Shown: positions 1,099 through 24,515, counted from the stretch's first letter. The stretch: 27,966 nt of DNA from Erysipelotrichaceae bacterium (GCA_021200395.1 JAJQGQ010000103.1:2747-30712), one strand, 5' to 3'. Notes: generated by a model not told the origin, from the sequence alone. Made by a program: numbers and translations.

Positions 1099-1125
1099 AA
1101 AAAAACCGTAAATTACGGTTTTTTT
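1099..1125 (-). terminator. Intrinsic terminator of the ABC transporter gene
   Basis: Perfect 13-1-13 inverted repeat AAAAAAACCGTAA-A-TTACGGTTTTTTT abutting the stop codon. Confidence 0.85.
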
Positions 1126-4100
1126 ACTCATTTCTTAAAGCTGTTACTGGATCTTCATTAGCAGCTTGTCTTGATGGAATAAATCCACCAATCAATGTTA
1201 AGACTGTACTTAATATAATCAATACAACTCCACCCATGACTGGAAGTTGAGCATTAACACTAGTATTACCTGCAACAGTGTGAATAATATAGTTACCAGG
1301 TATCAATAGTAATAAACTAATCACTATACCTAAAACACCAGCAAGTAATCCAATAATAAATGTTTCAGCATTGAATACCTGAGATATATTATTTTTACTA
1401 GCACCCATAGCACGCAAGATACCAATTTCTTTCTTTCTCTCTAATACACTTATATAAGTAATAACACCAATCATAATAGATGAAACAACTAATGAAATAG
1501 CCACAAATGCCATTAATACATAACTTAATGTATTAATAATATCAGTAACAGATGTCATTAATGTACCAACTAAATCTGTATAAGAAATAACCTTATCTTC
1601 ATCTCCGTTAGCTTCCATACGGTCATTATAAGCATCTAAGATATTAATAACTTCTTCTTTGCTTTCAAAATCTATTGGATAAATATCTATTTCAGAAGGT
1701 GTATCATAATCAACATATCCTAATGTAGATAAATTACTATCATACGTAGAAGTTGTAGAAGTCATAAGAGTTGTTAATAACTCTGTCATATCATCTTCAT
1801 CCATATTCATTTGGAATGCATTTGCAAAAGCATCAGTATCAATACTTAATGCATTAGCCATTGAAGAACTTAATGAAGAAAGTTGAGATGTCAATTGCTG
1901 TTCTAAGCTTGAACTCATAGATGACATAACTGATGACATATAGTTTGTCATAATAGCAGTTATTTGATCTTCTAAACCACTTGAAGTCATCCAATTTGTT
2001 AGATAGTTTGTAATAATATTACTTGCTGTATCTGAATTTAAATAATCTGTGATATAAGTTGTTAAATCTGTCATATTTGATAGATTATTTTCATCAGCAT
2101 AATCATTATAGCTAGCCATTAATTGATTTAATATTTCTTCCATTTGTTCAGTAGTAATCGTTAATTCTCCATTTTCGCTAATAGCTTCTTGAATTAATTG
2201 TTGCATTTGTTGATTAACTTCAGTAGAAGTTAAATAACTTTGTAAATCTTCTGAGAAAGAATTAATATTAGAATCGCTATTACTTGCATAAGATGCATAA
2301 CCATCAACAAGTTCATTTACTAATTCTGTCATATCATCACTAGACATATCAAAATTTAATTGCGATATGATATCACTCATATCCAATTCTGGTAAATCCA
2401 TTTGTGTCATAACACCATTTAACCCACTCAAATCAATACTCATAGCACTCTCATCAAATTGGAAAGCACTCGTTAAAGCATCTTCATCAATAGAAAACAT
2501 TGAACTAAAATCAAAAGAACTATCATCATCAGCATCAAAACTTTCACCTGTAAAAACATTGATATCTGGATTAGCTAATTGTTCTTGGACAATTTCACTA
2601 TTATATGCTTCATCAATAATATATGATGTTAATGCTGAAGTATAATAGATACCAGATGTTAACATTGTAGCTGTAACATCTTCTTTAGGTTGAACAATAC
2701 CAACAATTGTTAAATCTTCTCCATTATCAATAATATCTTTCATATAATCATCATCATCTGATTTATCTTTCCAAACATTATATTCTTCATCATATTCATA
2801 ATAATCAGCTGAATTAACAAGCTTAAATGTAATACCTAATATATCATCATAAGTATACGTACCATCTGTTGTAGTAACAGTTATCTCTTCATCATTAGAA
2901 AATTGTTCTAACATATCTTCCAATTCTGTATAATCTCTTAAACCTAATGGGTATAATAAGAAATCACTTATGCTACCACCACTTGATAAAACCAATACAC
3001 ATTCATTGTAACTTGTTGGCCAACTTCCTGCCACTACATCATATTGATCATCATATAATGAAGTGTTTTCAGGCATTTGATAGAAAACATCTGTACTCAT
3101 CATACTAGACATAAGACTGTTTGAGCTTGAAGAAGAAAGGCCCAAAGCACTAAATGAACCATCAGGATTAACTTGATGTATGGTACTTGTATCAGAACTA
3201 AAAATTTGTGGTGTAACATCATAAATATATTCTATAGCACTTGTATATTCTTCTAAACCACTTTCTCCACTGTCAATATATTCCTTCAATGATTCCAAAT
3301 CATTTGACCCAATAGTAGAAAACATAGTAGAAACAGTAGAATTAACTTGTATTTCATCTTCTGAACTACCACTTCTAGCAGTTTCTGCAATGCCTGTCAT
3401 ACCAGAAAGCATCGATGTCATATCAAAACCTGTACTTGTAATCGATATTGGATATTCTGACATAGTTTCTTCTTCAACATCAGCAATATAAGCATTAACA
3501 CCAGTAGATAAAGACAATATTAAAGCGATACCTATAATACCAATAGAACCAGCAAAAGATGTTAAAATTGTTCTAGCTTTCTTAGTATTAAGATTGTTAA
3601 AACTCAATGTTAGTGATGTTAATAAAGACATACCTGTTTTACCCATGTTCTTATGAACTGGTTTAACTAATGATTGTTCAATTTTATATGGATCACTATC
3701 ACTAGTAATCTTACCATCTTTTAAAGTAACAATTCTTGTTGCATAATCTTGAGCCAATTCAGGATTATGTGTTACCATAACAACCAATCGATCATTTGCT
3801 ACTTCTTTTAATAAATCCATAACCTGAACACTCGTATCACTATCTAATGCTCCTGTAGGTTCATCAGCTAATAAGATATCTGGATCATTTACCAATGCTC
3901 TAGCAATGGCTACTCTTTGCATCTGTCCACCAGATAATTGATTAGGTTTTTTATGCACTTGATCGCCTAAACCTACTTTATCTAACGCTTCTTGTGCTCT
4001 TTTCCTTCTTTCAGCCTTTGATATACCTGAAATAGTAAGCGCCAATTCAACATTAGATAAAATCGTTTGATGTGGAATCAAATTGTAACTTTGAAAAACA

Positions 4101-4360
4101 AAACCAATCGTATGGTTACGATATGAATCCCAATCTCTATCTTTATATTTTTTAGTAGAAATACCATTAATAATCAAATCACCTTTATCATAGCGATCTA
4201 ATCCACCAATAATATTCAACAAAGTTGTTTTACCCGAACCACTAGGTCCAAGTATAGCAACAAACTCATTATCCCTAAGATTTAAACTTACCCCATCCAA
4301 AGCTTTTTGAACAAGAGCCCCAGTTTTATATTGCTTATGAATATTCTTTATTTGCAACAT
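1124..4360 (-). CDS. Fused ABC transporter ATP-binding protein / FtsX-MacB-type permease with a very large acidic extracytoplasmic domain
   Basis: Walker A GPSGSGKT, signature LSGGQ, Walker B ILLADEP, switch MVTH, TM1 (FAGSIGIIGIALIL), C-terminal FtsX motif ERKKEIGILRAMGA. Start moved to 4360 (MLQIKN) because AGGAG at 4370-4374 is 9 nt upstream. Confidence 0.93.
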   Translation of the reverse strand: MLQIKNIHKQYKTGALVQKALDGVSLNLRDNEFVAILGPSGSGKTTLLNIIGGLDRYDKGDLIINGISTKKYKDRDWDSYRNHTIGFVFQSYNLIPHQTILSNVELALTISGISKAERRKRAQEALDKVGLGDQVHKKPNQLSGGQMQRVAIARALVNDPDILLADEPTGALDSDTSVQVMDLLKEVANDRLVVMVTHNPELAQDYATRIVTLKDGKITSDSDPYKIEQSLVKPVHKNMGKTGMSLLTSLTLSFNNLNTKKARTILTSFAGSIGIIGIALILSLSTGVNAYIADVEEETMSEYPISITSTGFDMTSMLSGMTGIAETARSGSSEDEIQVNSTVSTMFSTIGSNDLESLKEYIDSGESGLEEYTSAIEYIYDVTPQIFSSDTSTIHQVNPDGSFSALGLSSSSSNSLMSSMMSTDVFYQMPENTSLYDDQYDVVAGSWPTSYNECVLVLSSGGSISDFLLYPLGLRDYTELEDMLEQFSNDEEITVTTTDGTYTYDDILGITFKLVNSADYYEYDEEYNVWKDKSDDDDYMKDIIDNGEDLTIVGIVQPKEDVTATMLTSGIYYTSALTSYIIDEAYNSEIVQEQLANPDINVFTGESFDADDDSSFDFSSMFSIDEDALTSAFQFDESAMSIDLSGLNGVMTQMDLPELDMSDIISQLNFDMSSDDMTELVNELVDGYASYASNSDSNINSFSEDLQSYLTSTEVNQQMQQLIQEAISENGELTITTEQMEEILNQLMASYNDYADENNLSNMTDLTTYITDYLNSDTASNIITNYLTNWMTSSGLEDQITAIMTNYMSSVMSSMSSSLEQQLTSQLSSLSSSMANALSIDTDAFANAFQMNMDEDDMTELLTTLMTSTTSTYDSNLSTLGYVDYDTPSEIDIYPIDFESKEEVINILDAYNDRMEANGDEDKVISYTDLVGTLMTSVTDIINTLSYVLMAFVAISLVVSSIMIGVITYISVLERKKEIGILRAMGASKNNISQVFNAETFIIGLLAGVLGIVISLLLLIPGNYIIHTVAGNTSVNAQLPVMGGVVLIILSTVLTLIGGFIPSRQAANEDPVTALRNE

Positions 4361-4585
4361 AATTATCATCTCCTAACTATGAGTATAAAGAATTATTGTA
4401 AACTAAAAATAAACAATTGTTAAATTATGTGAAATAATCCACGTTATCGAAGGTTATCTTAAAATGTCAACAAGAACAAAAGATTTCATTATGATTATTG
4501 ATAAAAAAACATACTGTATAATTTGGTTATATTATGCTAACTATATACTTTATGAATGAATTTGTTAGCACACAACAAAGGAAAG

Positions 4586-11907: not shown

Positions 11908-14900
11908 CTATTTAAGTTTTGTAATATCAATCAATGATACATCACCACTATGACGTTTTTCCAAACAGTTGATAAGTGCTTGAGCTGTATCTAATGATGT
12001 GTAGATTGGAATACCTGCTTCTACTGCAAATCTTCTAATCATAAATCCATCTTTTAAGTTATTATTTCTTGTAGGAATATCAATAACTAAATCTACAGTA
12101 TCTGTTAACATTAAATCAAATAATGTATTACTCTTAGCATCAATACGATTAACAATATGGACAGGTACACCATGAGCTTTTAAGAAATTATATGTACCTT
12201 GAGTAGCATATAAATCATAACCAAACATATAATATTGTTTAGCAATTGGTAAGAATTCTTCTTTAGATGAATCTTTAATAGTACAAATAATATTTTTACG
12301 TTTTGGTAAATTCACACCTGCACCCATAAACGCTTTATATATAGCTTCATCAAAGTCTTTAGAAATACCTAAAACTTCACCTGTTGATTTCATTTCAGGA
12401 CCCAAGCTAATTTCTGCCCCTGTAATCTTTTCAAATGAGAAGATTGGCATCTTAATCGCAATCGTTTCTTTTTCAGGTTGTAAACCATATTCATAACCTT
12501 GTTCCTTAATTGATTTCCCCATAATAACATGCGTAGCCACATCAACAACAGGTATATCTGTGACTTTAGAAATATATGGAATAGTACGTGAAGAACGTGG
12601 ATTAACTTCAATAACATATACTTGATCTTCATAAACAATAAATTGAATATTAATTAAACCAATAACATGTAAAGCTTTCGCAAGTCTTGCTGTATAATCA
12701 GCAATGACTTCTTTAATTTCAGGTTTTAACTTTTGGGTTGGATAAACTGAAATACTATCACCACTATGGACACCTGCACGTTCTACGTGTTCCATAACAC
12801 CTGGAATTAAAATACCATCCTCATCACATACAGCATCAACTTCAACTTCTTTACCAGCTAAATATTTATCAATCAAAATTGGATGCTCCTGATATTGACG
12901 ATTCACAATCTTCATAAACTTCTTAATATCACCATCATTTAAAGCAATCTCCATACCTGCTCCACCTAACACATAAGAAGGTCTTACTAATACTGGATAA
13001 CCAATTTCATTAGCAACCTGAATGGCTTCTTCCGTCGTAAATACTGTTGAACCTCGAGGTCTAGCAATATGGCATTTCTCTAAGATTTCATCAAATCTTT
13101 CTCTATCTTCAGCAGCATCTACATTATCTGCAGATGTTCCTAAAATTTGAACACCCATTTCCATTAATGCTTTTGTAAGTTTGATTGCTGTTTGTCCACC
13201 AAATTGAACAATAGCTCCATCTGGTTTTTCAATATCAACGATACTTTCAACATCTTCTGCAGTTAATGGTTCAAAATATAATCTATCTGCAATATCAAAG
13301 TCTGTAGATACTGTTTCAGGGTTGTTATTCACAATAATTGTATCATAACCAGCTTCTTTTAATGCCCATACACAATGAACTGAACAATAATCAAATTCAA
13401 TACCTTGACCAATACGAATAGGTCCTGAACCTAATACCATAATCTTTTTCTTTTTATCTTGTGGATCAACTTCGTTGTATCCACCATATACTGAATAATA
13501 GTAAGGTGTTGAAGCATCAAATTCTGCAGCACATGTATCAACTGTTTTAAATGCTGCAACAATGTTATTGTCTTTACGCATTTGATGAATTTCTTCAGTT
13601 GTTTTTCCCGTGTACTGGGCAATGACTAAATCAGGGAATTCTAAACGTTTCGCAGTTTTTAATAATTCAGGTGTTAAAGGTTCTGATTTGATACGATTTT
13701 CTACTTCTACTAAATGTTTGATTTTATCAATAAACCAAATGTCTATTTTGGTAATATCATGAATTTCTTCTTCACTAATACCTTTTCTTAAAGCTTCAGC
13801 TATCGCAAAGATACGATGATCATCAACATCTTTAAGTTTCTTTCTTAATTGATCATGATCTAAACAATCAATTTCTTTCAAATGCAAATCATAAACATTT
13901 TGTTCTAATGAACGAATAGCTTTCATTAAAGCTCCTTCAAAGTTATTACAAATACTCATAACTTCTCCAGTAGCTTTCATTTGTGTGCCTAATTCTCTAG
14001 AAGCCCCTACAAATTTATCAAATGGCCATTTTGGAATCTTACATACAATATAATCCAATGTTGGTTCATAAGAGGCATATGTTTTACCTGTAACGGCATT
14101 AACTATTTCATCTAATGTATAACCCAAGGCTATTTTAGCAGCTAATTTAGCAATTGGATAGCCTGTCGCTTTAGAAGCTAATGCAGAAGAACGAGAGACT
14201 CTTGGATTGACTTCAATAACAATATATTCGAAACTATCAGGATCCAATGCAAATTGAACATTGCATCCACCTTTAATATTCAAAGCTGTAATAATATTTA
14301 AGGCAGAACTTCTAAGCATCTGATATTCTTTATCACCCAATGTTTGTGAAGGTGCCACAACAATACTATCACCTGTATGCACACCTACAGGATCTAAGTT
14401 TTCCATATTACATACCGTAATACAGTTACCATGACTATCACGCATTACCTCATATTCGATTTCTTTCCATCCTGCGATGCATCTTTCTATCAAACATTGA
14501 GATACTCGTGATAATCTTAAACCATTACTACAAATATCATGGAGTTCCTTTTCATTATGAGCAATACCTCCACCAGTACCACCTAATGTATAAGCAGGTC
14601 TTACAACGACTGGATAACCTATTTCCGCTGCAAATTCCAAAGCATCATCTACATGATTAACAACAACAGATGCAGCCACTGGTTCATGAATGCGTTCCAT
14701 TAAATTTTTGAATTCTAATCTATCTTCAGCTAGTTTAATTGTATCAGTATTTGTTCCTATTGTTTCTACATCATGAGCTTTTAAAAATCCTTCATCTGCT
14801 AAAGCCATCGCAATATTTAAAGCATTTTGACCACCTAATGTAGGTAATATACTATCAGGCTTTTCAACTTCTATTAAATGTTTCACAACTGGTACTGTTA

Positions 14901-15105
14901 AAGGTTCAATATAAACTTTATCAGCAATATCTTTATCAGTCATAATTGTTGCTGGGTTAGAGTTAATTAATACAACTTCAACACCCTCTTCTTTTAAAGC
15001 ACGACAAGCTTGTGTTCCAGCATAATCAAATTCAGCTGCTTGTCCAATGATGATTGGTCCTGAACCAATAACCAATACTTTTTTGATATCTTCTCTTTTA
15101 GGCAT
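11908..15105 (-). CDS. carB: Carbamoyl-phosphate synthase large subunit (copy 1, in an operon with carA)
   Basis: MPKREDIKKVLVIGSGPIIIGQAAEFDYAG, two ATP-grasp halves (EVNPRVSRS, EVNPRSSRT) and a C-terminal MGS-like domain. Confidence 0.97.
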   Translation of the reverse strand: MPKREDIKKVLVIGSGPIIIGQAAEFDYAGTQACRALKEEGVEVVLINSNPATIMTDKDIADKVYIEPLTVPVVKHLIEVEKPDSILPTLGGQNALNIAMALADEGFLKAHDVETIGTNTDTIKLAEDRLEFKNLMERIHEPVAASVVVNHVDDALEFAAEIGYPVVVRPAYTLGGTGGGIAHNEKELHDICSNGLRLSRVSQCLIERCIAGWKEIEYEVMRDSHGNCITVCNMENLDPVGVHTGDSIVVAPSQTLGDKEYQMLRSSALNIITALNIKGGCNVQFALDPDSFEYIVIEVNPRVSRSSALASKATGYPIAKLAAKIALGYTLDEIVNAVTGKTYASYEPTLDYIVCKIPKWPFDKFVGASRELGTQMKATGEVMSICNNFEGALMKAIRSLEQNVYDLHLKEIDCLDHDQLRKKLKDVDDHRIFAIAEALRKGISEEEIHDITKIDIWFIDKIKHLVEVENRIKSEPLTPELLKTAKRLEFPDLVIAQYTGKTTEEIHQMRKDNNIVAAFKTVDTCAAEFDASTPYYYSVYGGYNEVDPQDKKKKIMVLGSGPIRIGQGIEFDYCSVHCVWALKEAGYDTIIVNNNPETVSTDFDIADRLYFEPLTAEDVESIVDIEKPDGAIVQFGGQTAIKLTKALMEMGVQILGTSADNVDAAEDRERFDEILEKCHIARPRGSTVFTTEEAIQVANEIGYPVLVRPSYVLGGAGMEIALNDGDIKKFMKIVNRQYQEHPILIDKYLAGKEVEVDAVCDEDGILIPGVMEHVERAGVHSGDSISVYPTQKLKPEIKEVIADYTARLAKALHVIGLINIQFIVYEDQVYVIEVNPRSSRTIPYISKVTDIPVVDVATHVIMGKSIKEQGYEYGLQPEKETIAIKMPIFSFEKITGAEISLGPEMKSTGEVLGISKDFDEAIYKAFMGAGVNLPKRKNIICTIKDSSKEEFLPIAKQYYMFGYDLYATQGTYNFLKAHGVPVHIVNRIDAKSNTLFDLMLTDTVDLVIDIPTRNNNLKDGFMIRRFAVEAGIPIYTSLDTAQALINCLEKRHSGDVSLIDITKLK

Positions 15106-16177
15106 TTGGATGACCTCCCATCATTTCAATAAATTCATCAAATAAGAAACCAGTATCCAAAGGCCCTGCACATGCTTCAGGATGGAATTGTACTGTTCTA
15201 ATATTTTCATTGATATATTCTAACCCTTCAATAGTTCCATCATTAACATTTTTAAACCAAGGTTTCGCAATACTTGAATCTATTTGATCTTCTACGACCA
15301 CAAAGTTATGATTTTGTGTAGATATGTAAACGGTATTTGTATTTAAATCTTTAACTGGGTGATTAGCTCCATGATGTCCATAAACCATCTTTTCCGTTTT
15401 AAAACCATGAGCCAAAGCCATTAATTGATGTCCTAAGCAAATTGCAAAAATTGGTTTCCCACTTCGCGCAAGTATTTGCATTTCATGGATAATATCTTCA
15501 CATTCTTCAGGATCTCCTGGCCCATTTGATAACATAATACCATCATAGTTTTCATTTAATATGACAGAAGCTTTTGTAAAAGCAGGATAAATTGTAACTG
15601 CACATCCTCTATTTGCTAATTCTTTTCCAATATTGTTTTTTGCTCCAAAATCATATAACGCAACTTTCAAATCACCATCACTTATTGTATAAGGTTTATC
15701 ACATGTTGTTTGTTCTACTACTCCAGTCACTTTAAAAGATTTAATACGTTCCATTACTTCATCTAAGCTATCATAATGTTTGGTTGTAATCATACCATTC
15801 ATACAACCATCAGTTCTAATAAGCTTAGTCAAATATCTTGTATCAATACCTTGAATACCTGGAATATCATGTTGTAATAAATATTCTTCTAAATCTAAAT
15901 TCTTTCTAAAATTACTACCTAAACGGGCTAGTTCATTTACTACAAAACCTTCTACATATGGTTTTCTAGATTCCTGATCTTCTAAACATACCCCATAATT
16001 TCCTATTAATGGATAAGTCATGACAACACTTTGACCTGCATATGAGGGATCTGTTAATACTTCTAAATAACCTGTCATAGATGTATTAAAAACAAATTCA
16101 CTCACAACTTCTTTTTCAGCTCCAAAATGTTCACCTTCAAAAACATGACCATCTTCTAAAATTAAATAAGCCTTCAT
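15098..16177 (-). CDS. carA: Carbamoyl-phosphate synthase small (glutaminase) subunit
   Basis: EFVFNTSMTGY, LSNGPGDP, catalytic ICLGHQ, QNHNF, QFHPEA; 8-nt overlap with carB. Confidence 0.97.
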   Translation of the reverse strand: MKAYLILEDGHVFEGEHFGAEKEVVSEFVFNTSMTGYLEVLTDPSYAGQSVVMTYPLIGNYGVCLEDQESRKPYVEGFVVNELARLGSNFRKNLDLEEYLLQHDIPGIQGIDTRYLTKLIRTDGCMNGMITTKHYDSLDEVMERIKSFKVTGVVEQTTCDKPYTISDGDLKVALYDFGAKNNIGKELANRGCAVTIYPAFTKASVILNENYDGIMLSNGPGDPEECEDIIHEMQILARSGKPIFAICLGHQLMALAHGFKTEKMVYGHHGANHPVKDLNTNTVYISTQNHNFVVVEDQIDSSIAKPWFKNVNDGTIEGLEYINENIRTVQFHPEACAGPLDTGFLFDEFIEMMGGHPNA

Positions 16178-16196: not shown

Positions 16197-16225
16197 AAAA
16201 AAACATATCAAATTAAATGATATGT
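16197..16225 (-). terminator. Attenuator-type intrinsic terminator in the carA leader
   Basis: mRNA ACATATCA-TTTAATT-TGATATGT-TTTTTT lies between the promoter and the carA RBS. Confidence 0.75.
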
Positions 16226-16302
16226 CCCACCAAATATAAAAAATAAGAATAAAAAGTATTATTATCAATCATATGTTTTGATGTCATAGTCTTCGCTTTC
16301 AT
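16213..16302 (-). CDS. Putative 29-aa leader peptide of carA (MKAKTMTSKHMIDNNTFYSYFLYLVGHII)
   Basis: ATG at 16302 with AAGGGA 9 nt upstream (in-frame ATGs also at 16311 and 16320). The stop TAA lies in the terminator loop. Translation is unproven. Confidence 0.5.
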   Translation of the reverse strand: MKAKTMTSKHMIDNNTFYSYFLYLVGHII

Positions 16303-16332
16303 ACTTCTCATTCCCTTCATTTTCAAATATAT

Positions 16333-16361
16333 AGTATAGCCAAAACATTCTTATGATGCAA
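16333..16361 (-). promoter_or_regulatory. SigA promoter of the carA-carB operon
   Basis: Minus strand: TTGCAT (16361-16356), 17 bp, TATACT (16338-16333). Confidence 0.7.
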
Positions 16362-16405
16362 GAGTTTTTTATCAATTTTATTATTTTTTATCAAGGGATA
16401 TTTAT

Positions 16406-16595
16406 AAAAAAAATAATCGTCCTAAGCCTAGAAAACAATGGGCGATTATTTTCATTATAAGTCTTTGAAAGGAATGGTAACTTTCAGTATATTTATTGAA
16501 TTTGTGCTTATGCTCCATGCATCTGCAATATTGATAATAGTTTTTGCTGTTATATAAATGGAAACAAAATAACTTATATCAAAAACTTCCTTTCG
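16406..16595 (-). ncRNA. Putative ~190-nt sRNA paralogous to the type I antitoxin RNA
   Basis: Minus-strand TATAAT at 16607-16602 in a context like that at 17012-17030 (TTCCTTT...ATTATAC). Ends in a terminator (16408-16450) that is 40/43 identical to 16926-16968. The -35 TTGCAA is only 15 bp away, so the promoter is uncertain. Confidence 0.4.
16474..16557 (+). CDS. Possible 27-aa hydrophobic peptide (MVTFSIFIEFVLMLHASAILIIVFAVI), toxin-like
   Basis: N-terminus resembles the neighbouring toxin (MVT.....F..ML). The RBS is poorly spaced (AAAGGA directly before ATG); an in-frame upstream ATG lies at 16438. Confidence 0.3.
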   Translation: MVTFSIFIEFVLMLHASAILIIVFAVI

Positions 16596-16709
16596 AACTT
16601 AATTATACTCACTTCAAAGATTTTGCAATACTTTCATCAAATATATTTGCTTATATTTTCTATATATATTTATTTATAGCAATTTATTATTTAAAATAAT
16701 GCTAATACG

Positions 16710-16718
16710 TGATATAAT
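16710..16718 (+). promoter_or_regulatory. Extended -10 promoter of the type I toxin mRNA
   Basis: TGaTATAAT, about 117 nt upstream of the toxin ATG. Confidence 0.65.
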
Positions 16719-16835
16719 TGATTTAAGGGACTATCATAGGTGATAGGCGATTGTTCATCTTTGATCTATCAGCATAATTGCAGTGATGCTGATATGTAAT
16801 CTCATATGAGAAATACAAACTGCTTGAGGTGAACT

Positions 16836-16934
16836 ATGGTTACATATCCTGATTTATTTCAATTTATAATCATGTTATGTGAAATTGTTGCAGTAACGAT
16901 AGCCATAATTATTCTATCGCAAGATAAAAAATAA
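16836..16934 (+). CDS. Putative holin-like type I toxin, 32 aa (MVTYPDLFQFIIMLCEIVAVTIAIIILSQDKK)
   Basis: RBS GAGGTG 5 nt upstream; single TM helix with a C-terminal KK. The MVTYxDLFQF start is typical of Firmicute Hol_Tox-type peptides. Missing from the ORF track because of its size. Confidence 0.8.
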   Translation: MVTYPDLFQFIIMLCEIVAVTIAIIILSQDKK

Positions 16935-17017
16935 TCGCCCTAAGCCTAAGAAACAATGGGCGATTATTATAACTTTAATTTTCTATAAGAACAATCGCTT
17001 ATCGATAGTTCCTTTTC
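16926..17017 (-). ncRNA. Putative ~90-nt antisense antitoxin RNA, convergent with and overlapping the 3' part of the toxin mRNA
   Basis: Minus-strand TTGTAA (17051-17046), 16 bp, TATAAT (17029-17024). Terminator stem AATAATCGCCC/GGGCGATTATT with a U-tail on the minus strand only. Ends are approximate. Confidence 0.6.
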
Positions 17018-17079
17018 ACTTTTATTATACACATTTTATTTTTTTTTACAATCATTTTTAATAATCTTATTGCAAAAAG

Positions 17080-17643
17080 TTATTTTAATTTCAATCCGTC
17101 TTTAAATGCTTCTCCTACTCTTTCACTTACTTTATAGTAACCATGAGTATAAGGATCAAAAGCTATTGCTCCTACTTTAGAAATATCAACTTTGCCATCT
17201 TCTAAAATAGATTCATCTGCAGTTACATTTACAACTTTGCCTATAACACCACATCCATATGGGCCATCTTGATATTCTACATACTCACATTCCATACATA
17301 ATGGAAATTCCTTGATAATTGGGGCATCAACATTCCCTGATTTAACAGCAGTTAACCCACTTTTTTCAAACTTGTTTGGAGTATTATTGGCAGAAACAAC
17401 ACCAAAATAATCAGCTTCTACAACATGTGCAGCGTCGGCAATACTAACAGTAAAGGCTCTTCTTTCTTTCATATTCTTCACTGTTTTATGTGTTTCTGTC
17501 AAACTCAAAACTACATGATCTCTTGCTTGCATAGTACCCCATGCTGCATTCATAACATCCACACTACCATCTTCATTATAAGTAGCAATCATTAATACAG
17601 GCATTGGAAAAATTGCTTCAGTCACTTTTATATTTTTTCTCAT
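17080..17643 (-). CDS. Flavin reductase-like (FMN-binding split barrel) protein
   Basis: IFPMPVLMIATY, NAAWG, HKTVKN, FTVSIA, APIIKEFPLCMEC; RBS AGGAGG. Confidence 0.88.
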   Translation of the reverse strand: MRKNIKVTEAIFPMPVLMIATYNEDGSVDVMNAAWGTMQARDHVVLSLTETHKTVKNMKERRAFTVSIADAAHVVEADYFGVVSANNTPNKFEKSGLTAVKSGNVDAPIIKEFPLCMECEYVEYQDGPYGCGVIGKVVNVTADESILEDGKVDISKVGAIAFDPYTHGYYKVSERVGEAFKDGLKLK

Positions 17644-17703
17644 GTCATTTATCCTCCTTGTTTTATGACTAAAACCATGTTATCATTAAACCATATTAAA
17701 AAC

Positions 17704-17730
17704 AAGTACCCACTTTTATGTTAGGTACTT
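17704..17730. promoter_or_regulatory. Candidate operator between the divergent flavin reductase and HxlR genes
   Basis: AAGTACC-N13-GGTACTT inverted repeat just upstream of the regulator RBS. Confidence 0.45.
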
Positions 17731-17745
17731 ACTTGGAGGAAAGTA

Positions 17746-18075
17746 ATGAGTAAAACCATTGAAAATGCTAATTTTGAAGATACAGGATATAGCTATACAT
17801 TATCTCTTATATCTGGAAAATATAAGCCTATTATTCTTTATTGTTTGATGGAATATGAACCTGTTAGATTCAACGAAATGCAAAGATATTTAAAAAAGAT
17901 TTCGGATAAAACTTTAAGTCAAAATTTAAAAGAATTACAAGCAGACGACTTAATCGAACGTCATGTATATCCACAAATACCACCTAAAGTAGAATATTCT
18001 TTAACTGAAAGAGGCCATTCTTTAGTTAAAGTATTGGATCAATTATGTGAATGGGGTATTCAAAATAGAAAATAG
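17746..18075 (+). CDS. HxlR-family winged-helix transcriptional regulator
   Basis: LSLISGKYKPIIL, RFNEM, ISDKTLSQNLKEL, VYPQIPPKVEYSLT. Confidence 0.92.
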   Translation: MSKTIENANFEDTGYSYTLSLISGKYKPIILYCLMEYEPVRFNEMQRYLKKISDKTLSQNLKELQADDLIERHVYPQIPPKVEYSLTERGHSLVKVLDQLCEWGIQNRK

Positions 18076-18093
18076 CATCATTGATGCTATTTT
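18069..18093. terminator. Bidirectional terminator between hxlR and kptA
   Basis: AAAATAGCATCA-T-TGATGCTATTTT, overlapping both gene ends. Confidence 0.8.
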
Positions 18094-18623
18094 TTGATAA
18101 ATATTTCTTGTTTTATATATTGAACAGGAACTTGTTCAATGCACCACACACCATTATCTGAAACACCAAATTCATAACCATCTTGTACCATTTGATAAGC
18201 ATCAATCTCTAAAACAACAGGTGTTTTATGCCATCTTGTAGCTGATTGAATGGATTTATCCATAGTTGCTTGCATATGCACAGCATGTCTTTCCATCTTA
18301 CTAATATATCCTGTTTCTAATATAAGTTGATAAGCTTCATGCGTTGTACCATGATATAAAATATTTGGTGGATTTTTATAAGTGAGCTCAGGTATGACCC
18401 AAGGAATACTATGTCCTTGACAAGCTTTAATGAATAAGCCATCACTACTATATTTAAAACGTTGTTTATTATCAGTCGCCACGATTTGATCTAATTGAGA
18501 TTTTGTTAGAGAAAGCCTATCTAATAATTGATCTACTTTGACATAACCATGAATATCCATATCTAAATCTTCATCTTCAGGATGATGTCTTAATAAATAT
18601 GTTAAATAATGACCTTTACTCAT
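18087..18623 (-). CDS. kptA: RNA 2'-phosphotransferase (Tpt1/KptA)
   Basis: LLRHHP, KQRF, QGHS, LYHGT, MERHAVH and VLEIDA motifs. Confidence 0.92.
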   Translation of the reverse strand: MSKGHYLTYLLRHHPEDEDLDMDIHGYVKVDQLLDRLSLTKSQLDQIVATDNKQRFKYSSDGLFIKACQGHSIPWVIPELTYKNPPNILYHGTTHEAYQLILETGYISKMERHAVHMQATMDKSIQSATRWHKTPVVLEIDAYQMVQDGYEFGVSDNGVWCIEQVPVQYIKQEIFIKK

Positions 18624-18658
18624 TCTATCACCTTCTTGGATGTATCATAGCATAACAC

Positions 18659-18686
18659 AAAAAATACCACAAGTTGATGTGGTATT
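18659..18686 (-). terminator. Intrinsic terminator after the MFS gene
   Basis: Stem AATACCACA/TGTGGTATT with a 6-nt loop and a U-tail on the minus strand. Confidence 0.7.
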
Positions 18687-18687
18687 A

Positions 18688-19881
18688 TTAATAAGCTCTT
18701 TCGGCAACATTAACTTTACCAATTTTGCCTTTTAATGTCGTAAACATAATGGCAAAACCAATCACAGTGAGCGTACATGCAAATAGTTTCATACTGAATA
18801 AACCGAACGTATCTTGCAATACACCTCCGACAACATTTCCCACAAATGATCCTATTCCTGTAGACATCATCGCAATCAAAGTTTGTCCCATCATTTGATC
18901 ACTTGCATCTAAGTAATCATTCACATAATAAGTAATCGTTGCAGTAAACATGCCATAAGAAATACCTTGAAACATCATACCAACAATCAATATTGGTAAA
19001 GCAGGTGCAAAACTAATCGTAAAGTTTCTTAACAAATAAAAGAACGACGCTACTAAAATAATCGTTTCACTTTTATATCTCTTAAGCAATGTGTGTGTAA
19101 TTGCCATAAATGGCAATTCACTTGCTGCCATCGCAAAGATTGCAACTCCATATAAAGATGTACTACCACCTAAGTTTGTAACAATGTTAACCAAATAAGT
19201 AGAAAGTGAAGAGGCTGCACCAAATTGAAAAGCAAAAGCACATAATATTAATACAAACACTTTATACTTCTTAAACAAATCAAATACAGATCCTTCTTCT
19301 TTTGTTGAATCTTCACTTTGAATATCACTATCAGGCATAGAATACAGTAATATTAATAATGCAATAGAAGATATGAGATGAACCCACCCAATAATAGATG
19401 CATTAATTATCTCAATAAGTTGCCCCAATACAAAGGCACTAATGGCATAAGATAATGACCCCATACCTCTAGATAATCCAAAATCTACATATTGTCCACC
19501 TTTAATATAATTCATACAAATCATTGATAAAATGGGTACCACAGAAGCCATCATACAAATCAAAGCAATATATAAACCCATCAATAAAAATGTAGGTAAA
19601 GAAAATAAATTCATAGATTCAAAAAATACAAACATTAATAAGTAAAGAATTGTCATCAATTTTTTAATTGTTAAACCTTTAATCTTTGATAATAACGAAG
19701 AAATAAATGGTGAAACAAAAACGGATGACAAAGCAGCTCCACCAGTAACAATACCAATAAGTGTATTACTCAATCCCTTATATTGTAAATACACTGCAAC
19801 ATAACCATAAACAGTACAAGATGTTATCCAATAAAGAATATGTACAAAATTGTACTTCATCTGCAACCCTTTCAAATCCAT
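18688..19881 (-). CDS. MFS transporter (MFS_1-like / LacY-NupG-type)
   Basis: About 12 hydrophobic segments; DFGLSRGMGSLSY, ASELPFM, FQGISYG motifs. The start may be at 19860. Confidence 0.88.
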   Translation of the reverse strand: MDLKGLQMKYNFVHILYWITSCTVYGYVAVYLQYKGLSNTLIGIVTGGAALSSVFVSPFISSLLSKIKGLTIKKLMTILYLLMFVFFESMNLFSLPTFLLMGLYIALICMMASVVPILSMICMNYIKGGQYVDFGLSRGMGSLSYAISAFVLGQLIEIINASIIGWVHLISSIALLILLYSMPDSDIQSEDSTKEEGSVFDLFKKYKVFVLILCAFAFQFGAASSLSTYLVNIVTNLGGSTSLYGVAIFAMAASELPFMAITHTLLKRYKSETIILVASFFYLLRNFTISFAPALPILIVGMMFQGISYGMFTATITYYVNDYLDASDQMMGQTLIAMMSTGIGSFVGNVVGGVLQDTFGLFSMKLFACTLTVIGFAIMFTTLKGKIGKVNVAERAY

Positions 19882-19990
19882 CTTCCTCCCCTTTATTTAT
19901 CCTAATCAAAGTATACAAAATATTTTTATTCAAATCAAATAATCTCACTCAATTTCAAATACAAAAATAGGATTCTTTCACAAGAGTTCC

Positions 19991-20008
19991 ATACCAAATT
20001 GGTATATT
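19991..20008 (+). promoter_or_regulatory. 7-1-7 palindrome overlapping an extended -10, upstream of the XRE gene
   Basis: ATACCAA-A-TTGGTAT (19991-20005) and TGgTATATT (20000-20008). Confidence 0.45.
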
Positions 20009-20032
20009 GTTGTAAGGAGGAAAAGCACAAAT

Positions 20033-20669
20033 ATGGACATAGGTAATAATTTAAAAGAATTAAGGGAAAGCAATCATTGTACAATCAATGAATTATCATT
20101 AAGTATTAACATAAGTGAAGAAACTATTATTTCTTGGGAAAATAATGAAAATGAACCATCAGTAGAAGAAGTATTATTATTGAATGAGTTTTATTTAAGC
20201 AAAGCGAAAAAGACAAATATAACTACTCAACATTTACCAATATTATTTATTATAAGTATTATTTGTATTATGCGAAATCGCTTCTCTTCGCTCGCGCTTT
20301 CGCGTAATGAGCTTGAAACTATTCCGTTTTATTATGCGTGAATCATGCGATTTCGCATAATATAACTAAAGCAACCTTCACATCACATGTTTGAATATGA
20401 TATATTCACCATGTGAAGCTTGCCTTAGTTTCAAGCTCATTATATTATTTGGTTCAATCTATATGATTGAACGCTATATTTATTCTTCTTCGTTAAGTCT
20501 TGGCTATACTTTATATCGCTATATGATGGTTGGAGAATATGTCAATCCTGGTAATCCTAATTTAGAAAATATATTTAATATTTCTTCGATGGTACTGCTA
20601 ATTATCCTTATCATTACTATCATAATCGCTATTTGTCTTTTTATAAAAATCAGAAAACAATCTAAATAA
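20033..20669 (+). pseudogene. XRE-family HTH + two-TM membrane regulator, interrupted by a 172-bp insertion
   Basis: ORFs 20033-20341 and 20391-20669 join in frame into one 154-aa protein (...FIISIICI/ILFGSIY...) when 172 bp between two ATTAT copies are removed. Confidence 0.75.
20267..20443. mobile_element. 172-bp non-coding, multi-palindromic insertion flanked by ATTAT direct repeats (non-autonomous element, family unknown)
   Basis: ATTAT at 20267-20271 and 20439-20443; locally GC-enriched left part; perfect 16-bp and 17-bp internal inverted repeats; no terminal inverted repeats and no transposase. Confidence 0.7.
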
Positions 20670-20714
20670 TCACCAATAAACCTCAATTATGATATAATAA
20701 TTGAGGTGATTTTT

Positions 20715-21107
20715 ATGGATAAAAAAGCTTATCAATACAGTAGCATTGTTTTAACGATAGTGACTGGTATTTTATCAATATATTATTTGATACATACTAG
20801 TTGGATGTTGTTATCATTTGTGTTGTTTTATTATATTTGTTTTTTGATATTACATATATTAAATATGAATAAATATATGACTATTTCTCAAAGTATTGTA
20901 TTACTTATGATTATAAGTTTAATGAATATGATAGTATCCTATTTTATAATAGGTAGTACCATTATAACTGATTTGATTTTTATGTTGTTTATGCCTTTTA
21001 TTATATGTTTTTATGGAGTTAAAGGATATTATGAAGATGAGCATTATTTGTTTATAGCTGTGTGTTGGTTTATATTATTGATAATAAAAATAGGAGGAGA
21101 TTTTTAA
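20715..21107 (+). CDS. Hypothetical integral membrane protein (~4 TM)
   Basis: Almost entirely hydrophobic. ATG at 20715 lies 6 nt after GAGGTG (the ORF-track GTG at 20706 is inside the RBS). Confidence 0.7.
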   Translation: MDKKAYQYSSIVLTIVTGILSIYYLIHTSWMLLSFVLFYYICFLILHILNMNKYMTISQSIVLLMIISLMNMIVSYFIIGSTIITDLIFMLFMPFIICFYGVKGYYEDEHYLFIAVCWFILLIIKIGGDF

Positions 21108-21121
21108 ATCTCCTCCTATTT
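21088..21121. terminator. Bidirectional terminator overlapping both convergent stop codons
   Basis: AAATAGGAGGAGATTT-TT-AAATCTCCTCCTATTT, 16-bp perfect stem. Confidence 0.8.
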
Positions 21122-24100
21122 AATTGCTTTATGATATTCTTGTAAAGATTTGACTTCATGATATCCATGAATATTTGTTTCAATAATACCTTCTAAGGCA
21201 GCCTTTGCAGCCGCAATATTTGTCATATAAGGTAATCCCATTTTAATAGCATTCTTTCTAATATAACTGTCATCATGAGCACTTTGTTTGCCACTTGGGG
21301 TATTGATAACCATTGCAAGTTCTCCATTGATCAATGCATCATTGATGTTTGGTTGACCTTCATATAGCTTTTTAATCTTTGTGACAGGAATACCTGCATC
21401 TTTAATCAGTTGATATGTTTTTCCTGTTGATACAATTTCAAAGCCTGCATCATAATATCCTTGAGCTAAAGATACAACCTCTGGTTTATCTCTATCATTT
21501 ACACTAATCAATACTTTACCACTTGTTGGTAAAGGTGTTTTAGTTGCTTCTTCAGCTTTATAGATAGCTGCACCAAATGATGATGCAATACCTAATACTT
21601 CACCCGTTGATCTCATTTCTGGTCCCAAAATTGGATCAACTTCAGGGAACATGTTGAATGGGAACACAGCTTGTTTAATGCCTACATGAGGTATTTTCTT
21701 TTCTGTCAAGCTTGTCACAGGAGAAGGTCTGCCAGTTAAATCATCAGTAATGATTTCTGTTGCAATTTTTACCATGTTGATATTACATACTTTAGATACT
21801 AAAGGTACAGTACGAGAAGCTCTTGGATTAGCTTCTAAGACATAAACCTTATCATCTTCAATCGCATATTGCATGTTCATTAATCCACGTACATTCATTT
21901 CTTTAGCTATCTTTTTTGTATATTCTTTGATTGTATTTAAATGTCTTACTGGAATATGTTGTGAAGGTAAGATACATGCTGAATCACCTGAGTGAATACC
22001 AGCTAATTCAATATGTTCCATAACAGCTGGTACAAATACATTTTCACCATCACTAATCGCATCTGCTTCACATTCCATGGCATTATGTAAGAATCTATCA
22101 ATAAGGATAGGTCTATCAGGTGTTACACCAACAGCAGCAGCCATATATTCTTTCAATTGTTCATCATCATAAACAACTTCCATACCTCTACCACCTAACA
22201 CATAAGAAGGTCTTACCATTAATGGATAACCAATGCGTTTAGAAATTTCTAATGCTTCTTCAATATCTACTGCCATCCCTGATTCAGGCATAGGGATGTT
22301 CAATTTTTCCATCATAGCATTAAATAAATCTCTATCTTCAGCCATATCAATGGTTTCAGGTGTTGTACCTAAGATATTAACTCCATTAGCTTTAAGTTGA
22401 GAAGCTAAGTTTAATGGTGTTTGTCCACCAAATTGAGCAATAACGCCTAATGGTTTTTCTTTGTGATAGATACTTAATACATCTTCTAATGTTAATGGTT
22501 CAAAATATAACTTATCAGAGGTATCATAATCAGTTGAAACTGTTTCAGGGTTACAATTAACAATAATTGTTTCGAAACCTAATTTTTTTAGTGCTAATGC
22601 CGCATGAACACAACAATAATCAAATTCAATACCTTGACCAATTCTATTAGGTCCTCCACCTAATATCATAATCTTCTTATTATCTGAAACTATGTCATGA
22701 TCTTCATCATTATATGTAGAATAATAGTAAGCATTATCTTTCGTTCCACTAACATGAACTGGTTGCCAAGTTTGTTCAATATGATTATCTAATCTTTCGT
22801 TTCTAATCATATCTTCATCCATATCTAATATTTGACTTAAATACTTATCAGAAAAGCCATCTAACTTTGCTTGTTTTAATACTTCTACAGGTAATTCTTT
22901 ACCTTTATAAGTTAATATATTCTCTTCTTCTTCAACCAATTCCTTCATTTGTTCAATAAAATAAGGCTTAATAGAAGTTAATTCATACAATTCATCAACT
23001 GTTGCACCCTTTCTTAATGCTTCATACATAATAAATTGTCTTTGACTAGTAGGCACAATCAATAATTTCAATAGCTCTTCTTTAGACATTTCATGATAAT
23101 TTTTAGCATAACCCAAACCATATTGACCAATCTCTAAAGAACGAATAGCCTTTTGGAATGCTTCTTTATATGTCTTACCAATACTCATAACTTCTCCAAC
23201 AGCTTTCATCTGTGTACCAAGCTTATCCTGCGAACCTTTGAATTTTTCAAAAGCCCATCTTGCAAATTTAATAACAACATAATCTCCATCAGGAACATAT
23301 TTATCTAAAGTACCATATTTACCACATTCAATTTCATCTAATGTTAAACCAGCAGCTAACATTGCTGATATTAAAGCAATTGGAAAACCTGTAGCTTTAG
23401 AAGCTAAGGCAGATGATCTAGATGTACGAGGATTAATCTCTATAACAATGATTCTTCCACTCTTAGGATCATGAGCAAATTGGACATTTGTACCACCAAT
23501 AACCCCAATCTTTTCAACAATTCTAAATGCTTGATCTTTCAAAGAATCTTGAACTTCTTGAGAAATTGTCAACATTGGTGCACTACAGAACGAATCACCA
23601 GTATGAACACCCATTGGATCAATATTTTCAATAAAACATACTGTAATCATATTGTTTTTTGCATCTCTAACAACTTCAACCTCTAATTCTTCCCAACCCA
23701 AAACGGATTCTTCGATTAAGCATTGATGCACTAAACTAGCAGCTAAACCACGTGATACAACTGTTTTGAGTTCATCAATATTGTATACCAGGCCCCCACC
23801 AGCCCCGCCCATCGTATAAGCAGGTCTAACAACAACAGGATACCCTAATCTATCTGCAATAGCTAAAGCTTCATCCACTGTATTAGCAATTTCACTTCTG
23901 GCCATTTCAATGTTAAGTTCATTCATGGTTTTCTTGAATTCCAAACGGTCTTCCCCACGCGTAATGGCATCAATTTGGACACCTAAGACTTGCACACCAT
24001 ATTTATCCAATACACCATTGTTACTTAATTCTTCACTTAAGTTTAATGCTGATTGACCACCTAGGTTTGGAAGTAAAGCATCTGGTCTTTCTTTTTCAAT

Positions 24101-24331
24101 AATCTGTGTTAATCTTTCTAAATTAAGTGGTTCAATATATGTTACATCAGCCACTTCTGGATCTGTCATAATTGTTGCAGGATTAGAATTGACTAATATA
24201 ATCTTATATCCTAAGCTTCTTAACGCTTTACATGCTTGTGTTCCAGAATAATCAAATTCACAAGCTTGACCAATAATAATTGGTCCTGATCCAATAACCA
24301 ATACTGATTGAATGTCATCTCTTTTTGGCAT
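21116..24331 (-). CDS. carB: Carbamoyl-phosphate synthase large subunit (copy 2, stand-alone, diverged paralog)
   Basis: MPKRDDIQSVLVIGSGPIIIGQACEFDYSG, EINPRTSRS, EANPRASRT, MGS domain. True start at 24331 (AAGGAGG upstream); the ORF-track extension to 24373 crosses the leader terminator. Confidence 0.96.
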   Translation of the reverse strand: MPKRDDIQSVLVIGSGPIIIGQACEFDYSGTQACKALRSLGYKIILVNSNPATIMTDPEVADVTYIEPLNLERLTQIIEKERPDALLPNLGGQSALNLSEELSNNGVLDKYGVQVLGVQIDAITRGEDRLEFKKTMNELNIEMARSEIANTVDEALAIADRLGYPVVVRPAYTMGGAGGGLVYNIDELKTVVSRGLAASLVHQCLIEESVLGWEELEVEVVRDAKNNMITVCFIENIDPMGVHTGDSFCSAPMLTISQEVQDSLKDQAFRIVEKIGVIGGTNVQFAHDPKSGRIIVIEINPRTSRSSALASKATGFPIALISAMLAAGLTLDEIECGKYGTLDKYVPDGDYVVIKFARWAFEKFKGSQDKLGTQMKAVGEVMSIGKTYKEAFQKAIRSLEIGQYGLGYAKNYHEMSKEELLKLLIVPTSQRQFIMYEALRKGATVDELYELTSIKPYFIEQMKELVEEEENILTYKGKELPVEVLKQAKLDGFSDKYLSQILDMDEDMIRNERLDNHIEQTWQPVHVSGTKDNAYYYSTYNDEDHDIVSDNKKIMILGGGPNRIGQGIEFDYCCVHAALALKKLGFETIIVNCNPETVSTDYDTSDKLYFEPLTLEDVLSIYHKEKPLGVIAQFGGQTPLNLASQLKANGVNILGTTPETIDMAEDRDLFNAMMEKLNIPMPESGMAVDIEEALEISKRIGYPLMVRPSYVLGGRGMEVVYDDEQLKEYMAAAVGVTPDRPILIDRFLHNAMECEADAISDGENVFVPAVMEHIELAGIHSGDSACILPSQHIPVRHLNTIKEYTKKIAKEMNVRGLMNMQYAIEDDKVYVLEANPRASRTVPLVSKVCNINMVKIATEIITDDLTGRPSPVTSLTEKKIPHVGIKQAVFPFNMFPEVDPILGPEMRSTGEVLGIASSFGAAIYKAEEATKTPLPTSGKVLISVNDRDKPEVVSLAQGYYDAGFEIVSTGKTYQLIKDAGIPVTKIKKLYEGQPNINDALINGELAMVINTPSGKQSAHDDSYIRKNAIKMGLPYMTNIAAAKAALEGIIETNIHGYHEVKSLQEYHKAIK

Positions 24332-24363
24332 AAATATATCCTCCTTATTTATATAGTTTTTAC

Positions 24364-24392
24364 AAAAAAACATATCTTATTAGATATGTTTT
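24364..24392 (-). terminator. Attenuator-type intrinsic terminator in the carB2 leader
   Basis: mRNA AAAACATATCT-AATA-AGATATGTTTT-TTT lies between the promoter and the carB2 RBS. Confidence 0.78.
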
Positions 24393-24451
24393 AAAGAAAT
24401 AGTAAAAAGATACTTCAATTTATTCAATTTTACGCCACTTGACTTACACAT
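24380..24451 (-). CDS. Putative 23-aa leader peptide of carB2 (MCKSSGVKLNKLKYLFTISLKHI)
   Basis: ATG at 24451 with AAGGGG 9 nt upstream; tandem TAA TAA spans the terminator loop. Translation is unproven. Confidence 0.5.
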   Translation of the reverse strand: MCKSSGVKLNKLKYLFTISLKHI

Positions 24452-24476
24452 TTTACCATTCCCCTTTTTCTAAAAC

Positions 24477-24515
24477 AGTATATTTTAAAATGACAAACTA
24501 TTCAAGAAAATGACA
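24477..24515 (-). promoter_or_regulatory. SigA promoter of carB2 with a direct repeat flanking the -35
   Basis: Minus strand: TTGAAT (24505-24500), 17 bp, TATACT (24482-24477). AAAATGACA at 24487-24495 and 24507-24515. Confidence 0.7.

Follow-up and report, generated by a model that had tools for sequence, protein, structure and literature searches.

Two transcription units for carbamoyl-phosphate synthase (CPS), the carAB operon and the solitary large-subunit gene carB2, lie in the 27,966-nt stretch of an Erysipelotrichaceae genome (G000) that was analysed here as a whole and is referred to as the window; all relevant genes are on its minus strand. carA, carB and carB2 all attain the curated NCBIfam cut-offs for CPS subunits. 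Each unit appears to open with a paralogous leader of ~110-135 nt, in which a sigma-A promoter is followed by an extended Shine-Dalgarno (SD) sequence with an AUG and by a short open reading frame (ORF) reaching or entering a weak A/U-rich putative terminator that immediately precedes the SD of carA or carB2; the final ~30 nt ahead of this terminator form a U-rich box (Table 1). An initial annotation had proposed a leader-peptide and terminator attenuator shared by both units, and the promoters, SD/AUG pairs, 29- and 23-codon ORFs, U-tracts and terminators were all found where it had placed them, when read on the minus strand. The carA-leader promoter was not listed in a consensus promoter scan because its TTGCAT element fits only 3 of 6 positions; the layout TTGNAT-17-TATACT is conserved in relatives.

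Table 1. Features of the two CPS transcription units and their leaders, in window coordinates (MFE, minimum free energy; P1, long-range helix described in the text)
Feature	Coordinates	Strand	Description	Basis
carA-leader promoter	16333..16361	-	-35 TTGCAT 16361-16356, 17-nt spacer, -10 TATACT 16338-16333	direct reading
carA-leader 5' box	16301..16324	-	purine-rich extended SD GAAAAUGAAGGGAAUGAGAAGUAU up to leader AUG; 5' strand of P1; AAGGGAA 16317-16311, leader ATG 16302	MFE fold, conserved consensus
carA leader ORF	16213..16302	-	29 codons (MKAKTMTSKHMIDNNTFYSYFLYLVGHII), stop TAA 16215-16213 inside terminator loop	sequence reading
carA-leader U-box	16232..16259	-	3' (anti-SD) strand of P1; 19/27 U counted over 16257-16231	MFE fold
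carA-leader weak intrinsic terminator	16197..16228	-	GGGACAUAUCA-UUUAAUU-UGAUAUGUUUU and U7 tail, -9.8 kcal/mol	fold
carAB, putatively controlled operon	11908..16177	-	carA 15098-16177 (ATG 16177), carB 11908-15105	NCBIfam NF009475 517.7 bits, NF003671 1547.8 bits
carB2-leader promoter	24477..24505	-	TTGAAT 24505-24500, 17-nt spacer, TATACT 24482-24477	consensus scan lists it, 9/12 matches
carB2-leader 5' box / SD	24451..24466	-	AAGGGGAAUGGUAAAA up to leader AUG; P1 5' strand 24465-24451; AAGGGGAAUGG 24466-24456, leader ATG 24451	MFE fold z = -4.76
carB2 leader ORF	24380..24451	-	23 codons (MCKSSGVKLNKLKYLFTISLKHI), stop TAA 24382-24380	sequence reading
carB2-leader U-box	24393..24413	-	14/21 U; 24407-24393 is P1 3' strand, UUUUUACUAUUUCUU pairing with AAUGGUAAAA and SD GGGG	MFE fold
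carB2-leader weak intrinsic terminator	24364..24392	-	AAAACAUAUCU-AAUA-AGAUAUGUUUU and U-tail, -9.9 kcal/mol	fold
carB2	21116..24331	-	solitary large-subunit CPS gene, start ATG 24331 behind AAGGAGG	NCBIfam NF003671 1497 bits

A leader family upstream of carA and carB2

A covariance model built from 28 leaders (R1) matched both window leaders, the carA leader with an E value of 2.7e-11 and the more diverged carB2 leader with 1.9e-4. As one model matches both, the leaders are homologous, and by this measure of sequence and structure they are diverged paralogues of one RNA family. This contradicts the initial annotation, which had taken them for otherwise unrelated sequences sharing a design. 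R1 also matched 22 of the 24 genomes sampled from the same Bacillota family, which is apparently gut-associated, and nothing convincing was obtained in the two sister families of the relatives sample (f2 and f3). A wider scan of the family gave matches in 76 of 81 genomes, with one or two copies each and three copies in a single genome. Comparison of coordinates in the relatives sample placed all matches at E<1e-3 directly upstream of carA or carB2, and those weaker matches that were examined proved to be either unrelated sequence or terminators at gene ends whose stem is similar; the hairpin type of the leader terminator also ends ordinary genes in relatives. No further regulon members emerged in G000, where a terminator regular expression returned only the two CPS leaders.

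The upstream regions of carA orthologues in relatives share the -10 element TATACT, the consensus box GAAAGGAAUGAGAA followed by an AUG, a second consensus box CUUUUUCUCAUUUUUUAUAUUU and the terminator ACAUAUCA/UGAUAUGU, and the same blocks are found upstream of carB2 orthologues. The 45-75 nt separating the purine-rich box from the U-box are unrelated among carA relatives, this loop varying in both sequence and length. Alignment of the upstream regions across related genomes showed that the leader ORF and the U-rich box are conserved family-wide, and because the layout as a whole is conserved in this way, the pattern is far beyond chance. The carA leader of one member, G016, is not detected by R1 and differs in sequence and terminator stem, and it keeps the architecture. 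A scan of the whole window against Rfam at the gathering threshold and permissive scans of both leaders returned nothing meaningful, and no description of the CPS leader was found in Rfam or in the literature searched, which agrees with the earlier statement that it was not recognised as described for Firmicute CPS genes. Nor was any such leader present before the carB2-type genes examined in Lachnospiraceae or other anaerobes, which are close homologues (74-84% identity). carB2 itself is a member of a highly conserved clade, which extends across Lachnospiraceae and numerous anaerobic phyla and shows 74-84% identity within the first 400 aa.

Across 28 non-redundant leaders, the segment that begins with the AUG and extends to the first terminator-stem base (722 codons in total) had 4, 85 and 50 stop codons in frames 0, +1 and +2, respectively, and all four frame-0 stops were the ORF's own stop just ahead of the stem. 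This shows that the leader ORF is under selection to stay open up to the terminator, and it is predicted to be translated. Its length across the family ranges from 20 to 44 codons, its AUG stands at a fixed distance behind the SD, and its stop lies in all leaders between 8 nt before the start of the stem and 51 nt beyond. In 12 of the 28 non-redundant leaders the stop overlaps the first stem base (UAA-ACAUAUC or UAG-ACAUAUC), and two leaders have an ORF that crosses the terminator and stops at the carA AUG. The earlier observation that the end of the ORF overlaps the terminator, with a U-rich tract just upstream of it, was thus borne out. The two window leaders also have the terminator stem ACAUAUC/GAUAUGU in common, each with CAT-ATC in frame; a stop codon in the loop together with an in-frame His-Ile pair was correctly noted in both of them, yet it is a genus-specific pattern and does not hold as a family rule.

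The N-terminal parts of the leader peptides are unconserved even inside a genus, and their C-terminus often reads F-S-H/R-F-L-Y, a recurrence due to the conserved U-box usually being read in one frame. Phe was the only enriched residue (3.1-fold, in UUU/UUC codons contributed by the U-tract). These data bear on the possibility that the C-terminal sequence arrests the ribosome near the stop codon with a metabolite bound and holds the terminator open, comparable to TnaC, SpeFL or the fungal arginine attenuator peptide (AAP). Such a nascent-peptide sensor would fit the core box (F-S-H/R-F-L/Y), which is in the same frame in 12 of 15 leaders, and the tight positioning of the stop codon at the terminator, but in the remaining 3 of 15 leaders the box falls in other frames, and the motif is missing from many leaders. 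Furthermore, the outcome at an intrinsic terminator is settled in the single passage of the polymerase, so that prolonged arrest would add little, and arrest induced by a metabolite would turn expression on when ligand is abundant, opposite to the control expected for an end product. The nascent-peptide alternative raised in the initial annotation is weakened by the reading of the box in another frame in these three leaders and by the unconserved N-termini, and we regard it as quite improbable.

Across the family the terminator helix was paired in 96.6% of cases, in the model-fitted alignment introduced below, and the U7-8 tail following the hairpin is conserved. No conserved RNA antiterminator was detected, as pairing of the ORF interior with the terminator arms was no better than that of dinucleotide shuffles (mean z: 5' arm -0.12, 3' arm -0.16), and the mutually exclusive 2:3 hairpin of classical amino-acid attenuators was not found either. 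One candidate, the carA-leader sequence AAAACAUAU pairing with the 3' arm of the terminator, is present in G000 (z = -2.1) and was rejected as an antiterminator because it is not conserved (family mean z -0.16). In the 3' arm of the carB2-leader terminator, an in-frame ATG at 24373-24371 on the minus strand stretches the longest carB2 ORF to 1085 aa. This extended ORF is likely an annotation pitfall, the true start being the ATG at 24331.

Pairing of the U-rich box with the leader ribosome-binding site

As judged from covariation, the U-tract has a second role: it doubles as the 3' strand of a predicted long-range helix, P1, that sequesters the extended SD and the AUG of the leader. The initial annotation had recorded the U-tract and overlooked this function as an anti-SD strand. 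In the consensus, AAGGAAUGAGAA pairs with UUCUCAUUUUUU, largely by G-U pairs. Compensating pairs are found in divergent members, including AUGAGG/CCUCAU, GUGAG/CUCAC, GGUAA/UUACC, GAAAGGG/CCCUUUC and AAGGGGGU/ACCCUCUU, and in the carB2 leader of the window, where AAUGGUAAAA pairs with UUUUACUAUU. In alignment A2, which was fitted to the structure of the model and so leans towards it, P1 was 89% paired with changes on both sides in 6 of its 12 pairs, and 92.5% of cells in the whole structure were able to pair, compared to 47-67% when the partners were slid by 1-3 columns. Independently of this alignment, 5' boxes combined with their own U-boxes gave -13.45 kcal/mol, whereas swapped partners gave -11.62 kcal/mol (permutation p = 5e-5).

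MFE folding yielded P1 together with the terminator in 5 of the 6 leaders folded, with z values from -3.0 to -4.8. These comprised the window carA leader (-3.0), the window carB2 leader (-4.8) and 3 of the 4 relatives, among them the divergent carA leader of G016 (-4.5); in the fourth relative, L035, P1 was not recovered (z = -1.9). Compared to shuffled U-boxes, the P1 energy reached only modest z values, shuffled boxes still giving about -10 kcal/mol, because any U-rich strand pairs with a purine-rich strand. We therefore relied on the covariation counts, the swapping of partners and the divergent G016 leader.

The 5' box constitutes an extended SD that pairs with the putative tail of the 16S ribosomal RNA, GGAUCACCUCCUUUCU, at a mean of -10.3 kcal/mol. 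The 16S 3' end is unassembled in G000, and the assignment of the tail is supported by copy number in four family genomes: complete family genomes contain 5-7 copies of the sequence and the reversed control has none, the pattern that a 16S 3' end should give. Opposite the two SD guanines, the U-box carries U rather than C in 36 of 39 cells, and its sequence looks like that of the putative 16S tail with C changed to U. In the 30 nt preceding the stem, which are also the anti-SD strand, the fraction of U amounts to 0.62, as against 0.31 in the ORF interior.

Both the 5' box and the U-box, and also the terminator stem, are more conserved in sequence than pairing alone would demand, which could also be taken to indicate a trans-acting factor, either a protein replacing PyrR or a small RNA, that binds the 5' box or P1 and controls translation of the leader or termination in response to pyrimidines or carbamoyl phosphate. 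The loss of PyrR from most of the family would be in line with this possibility. However, the conserved sequences complement each other and the putative 16S tail, which accounts for their conservation; the architecture survives in the G016 leader despite its different sequence, the loop separating the boxes is variable, and no conserved neighbouring regulator gene was seen. We consider a trans-acting factor improbable, though less so than the arrest peptide.

Pyrimidine and arginine regulators in the family

Searches for PyrR gave no match over the cut-off in G000. PyrR was found in 2 of 24 family genomes versus 15 of 16 genomes of the sister families (1/1 and 14/15). The leaders contain no PyrR motif by regular expression and had no Rfam match. 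The absence of PyrR sites claimed in the initial annotation was substantiated, and pyrR itself was not detected in G000 or in 22 of the 24 sampled family relatives. The Rfam negative is weak for PyrR sites in this lineage, because at the gathering threshold Rfam missed RF00515 on the PyrR-positive L122 and L126 leaders, in which AGUCCGAGAGGCU/AGUCCGGGAGACU PyrR sites are visible. In PyrR-positive genomes, pyrB is preceded by a classical AGUCCGAGAGGCU site, an antiterminator and a terminator. In the pyrB upstream regions compared (L064, L066, L063, L120 and L065), PyrR-less members retain the pyrB antiterminator/terminator pair (AAGGUAUAU / AAUAUACCU..AGGUAUAUUUUUUUU) and have lost the PyrR-binding hairpin seen in G011 and G012. 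In the genus of the window (L062:1120-1156), only the terminator after a cytidylyltransferase-family gene remains upstream of pyrB.

The relation between PyrR and the CPS leader is not a simple one. In G012, PyrR is present and the leader is missing. In G011, which possesses both PyrR and a PyrR-type pyrB-carB operon, carA has nevertheless retained the leader; this implies that the leader is not simply a PyrR substitute. Co-occurrence of both devices in G011 would be compatible with an alternative in which the same attenuator operates without metabolite sensing, with 30S subunits and the U-box competing for the SD, and either reports translational capacity (free 30S, growth rate) or sets a low basal level. 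The long and strong SD, the resemblance of the U-box to the putative 16S tail weakened by C-to-U changes and the lack of an evident ligand pocket or protein site fit this alternative as well. On the other hand, a growth-rate device should also be found at other genes, and the element is confined to CPS genes in the genomes checked; moreover, the genomic context indicates pyrimidine supply. A pure capacity sensor is therefore in our estimation unlikely, but it is the strongest of the alternatives weighed here.

The context in question is the fate of carbamoyl phosphate. Ornithine carbamoyltransferase (OTC) is present in most genomes with carAB, and ATCase in the genomes tested. OTC was not found in the leader-bearing genomes G005, G008, G023 and G024, which have carB2 only, nor in G015, whose only CPS is carAB with a leader. 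In these five genomes ATCase is thus the sole known consumer of the product, and the CPS behind the leader can feed only pyrimidine synthesis. Five family genomes (G005, G008, G020, G023 and G024) carry carB2 without any carA, which suggests a CPS working without the glutaminase subunit.

With regard to arginine, the T-box model RF00230 had no match in the window, and the same model, as a positive control, recovered the arg operon leader of relatives at 130 bits, so that the earlier statement that the leaders lack a T-box is upheld. The control hits precede the arg operon in two relatives, G009 (L214:1773-1979, plus strand, 130 bits) and G021 (L215:481-689, minus strand, 128 bits); the last three genes of this operon are argJ-argB-argF, and its first three were assigned as argG-argH-argC by ORF size and order only. 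ArgR (TIGR01529) was not found in five genomes searched, two of them 100% complete by marker count. Arginine synthesis in G009 and G021 appears to be tRNA-sensed, no ArgR having been found in them, and since their arg operon has a T-box, arginine is sensed elsewhere than at the CPS leader. An arginine codon attenuator, or a leader controlled by ArgR, PyrR or a T-box, could be envisaged because carAB and the arginine pathway are found together in most genomes. Opposed to this are the depletion of Arg in the leader peptides (0.58-fold), the missing 2:3 hairpin, the failure to find argR in the five genomes searched or pyrR in G000 and 22 of 24 family genomes, the lack of PyrR motifs or T-boxes in the leaders, and the persistence of the leader in genomes without OTC. 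We attribute hardly any probability to control of this type.

Two further elements precede the carA promoter. Immediately ahead of the -35 element (16365-16394, minus strand), two copies of the direct repeat TTGATAAAAAA are spaced 19 bp apart; promoters of carA, though not those of carB2, have a conserved A/T block of a similar kind, ATAATAAAAAATTATAAA. A reading of this block as tandem ARG boxes was rejected, as ArgR was not found in the five genomes and a T-box precedes the arg operon. The block is not an ArgR site; possible functions are an UP element or a binding site for a further factor. Farther upstream, at 16408-16450 (minus strand), a terminator containing G and C, AATCGCCC..GGACGATT with a U-run, is conserved in two genomes of the same genus. 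Elsewhere in the window, positions 1124-4369 (minus strand) encode a 1081-aa fused ABC ATPase/permease of the MacB type.

A putative ribosome-gated attenuator

From its sequence features we conclude with good confidence that the leader acts as a ribosome-gated transcription attenuator. In the ON state, the ribosome would load on the still-free SD and trail RNA polymerase, and on reaching the stop codon would cover the 5' arm of the terminator, allowing read-through. In the OFF state, the U-box would be completed first, P1 would close over SD and AUG and block ribosome loading, and the terminator would then fold and stop transcription. The genomic context points to pyrimidine nucleotide supply, namely UTP, as the probable signal: low UTP would slow the polymerase over the U-box with its 62% U, thereby extending the window for ribosome loading and keeping the ribosome close behind the polymerase, as in pyrBI and pyrE of Escherichia coli. 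For the whole statement, that such an attenuator stands before each CPS unit and senses UTP kinetically, we see the balance as even. More tentative, and to be considered possible rather than probable, is the specific proposal of a self-closing kinetic UTP sensor, in which the strand that requires UTP for its synthesis is the anti-SD strand itself, polymerase speed sets the window for 30S capture and the ribosome is the sole antiterminator.

Several observations weigh against this interpretation. The hairpins of the window are weak at -9.8 and -9.9 kcal/mol, those of most members contain only 1-2 G-C pairs, and both window hairpins failed a consensus terminator scan requiring three G-C pairs. 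The U-richness of the tract is partly accounted for by the need to pair with a purine-rich SD, the energy of P1 exceeds that of shuffled boxes only modestly, and the pair counts come from an alignment inclined towards the model. Retention of the leader beside PyrR in G011 belongs here as well. A search for sequencing runs covering the locus gave two of undeclared type and no recorded RNA run. Finally, transcription is reported to run ahead of translation in B. subtilis-type Firmicutes (PMC12407708), which would disfavour a mechanism based on coupling.

The closest parallels to the putative UTP sensor are pyrBI, with its leader pyrL, and rph-pyrE of E. coli and Salmonella. They have the same order of promoter, leader ORF, U-rich tract, terminator reached by the ORF and pyrimidine-pathway gene, and they likewise function without an RNA antiterminator and without a repressor protein, the ribosome itself blocking the hairpin. 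UTP-sensitive, translation-coupled attenuation at pyrBI and pyrE was reportedly established in the work of Turnbough and Jensen. The CPS leader differs in showing no sequence homology to these leaders, in belonging to a low-GC Bacillota family, in occurring on two paralogous CPS loci, in its much weaker terminator (about -10 kcal/mol) and in the absence of a reiterative-transcription motif. To our knowledge, a U-tract doubling as an anti-SD lock on the leader's own ribosome-binding site is not known from pyrL.

Control of pyrimidine genes by PyrR, which acts on Bacillota pyr operons and on solitary carB genes and occurs in the sister families as well as in two members of this family, does the same job by premature termination, but it needs PyrR, a hairpin of the ARUCCAGAGAGGYU type and an antiterminator, none of which was found in the CPS leaders. 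The fungal AAP of CPA1/arg-2 is encoded by a short upstream ORF before a CPS gene as well; this is an analogy only, as it is a eukaryotic, translational system with arginine-dependent arrest and a conserved peptide. Among Firmicutes, B. subtilis tlrB (yxjB) and vmlR provide examples of a ribosome on a short ORF preventing an intrinsic terminator (PMC6851288; PMC9226507), and at tlrB, T-rich, NusG-dependent pauses synchronise RNA polymerase with the ribosome that blocks the terminator (PMC6851288). Both sense antibiotics via drug-stalled ribosomes and control resistance genes, whereas the CPS leaders have no conserved arrest motif and biosynthetic targets. In the mgtCBR and mgtA leaders of Salmonella (in part, PMC3641672), the position of the ribosome on a short ORF relative to RNA polymerase gives the readout too, in their case of the supply of nucleotides or amino acids, but these leaders use alternative stem-loops and respond to other signals in other organisms.

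The CPS leader is new in that it sequesters its own SD, occurs in Bacillota, has been duplicated onto two CPS genes and stands in inverse relation to PyrR; the kind of regulation, pyrBI-like attenuation, is already known. The leader adds an RNA family absent from Rfam and helps annotation of the carB2 start and of the leader ORFs.

Textbook pyrimidine control in low-GC Gram-positive bacteria is exerted by PyrR, and attenuation based on coupling is regarded as an enterobacterial speciality. The family described here is mostly without PyrR, and ArgR was not found in the five genomes searched; a conserved leader, independent of any protein regulator in the proposed view, stands before exactly the enzymes that make carbamoyl phosphate. 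With a length of ~130 nt, it offers a test system for ribosome gating of intrinsic terminators in Firmicutes outside antibiotic sensing, and it also bears on the use of an anti-SD strand as a timer and on regulatory rewiring after the loss of a regulator. Should the kinetic UTP sensor prove true, it would represent a coupling-dependent nucleotide sensor in Bacillota, recruited twice, to carAB and to carB2, in a family having lost PyrR and ArgR, and would imply effective coupling of transcription and translation in this lineage.

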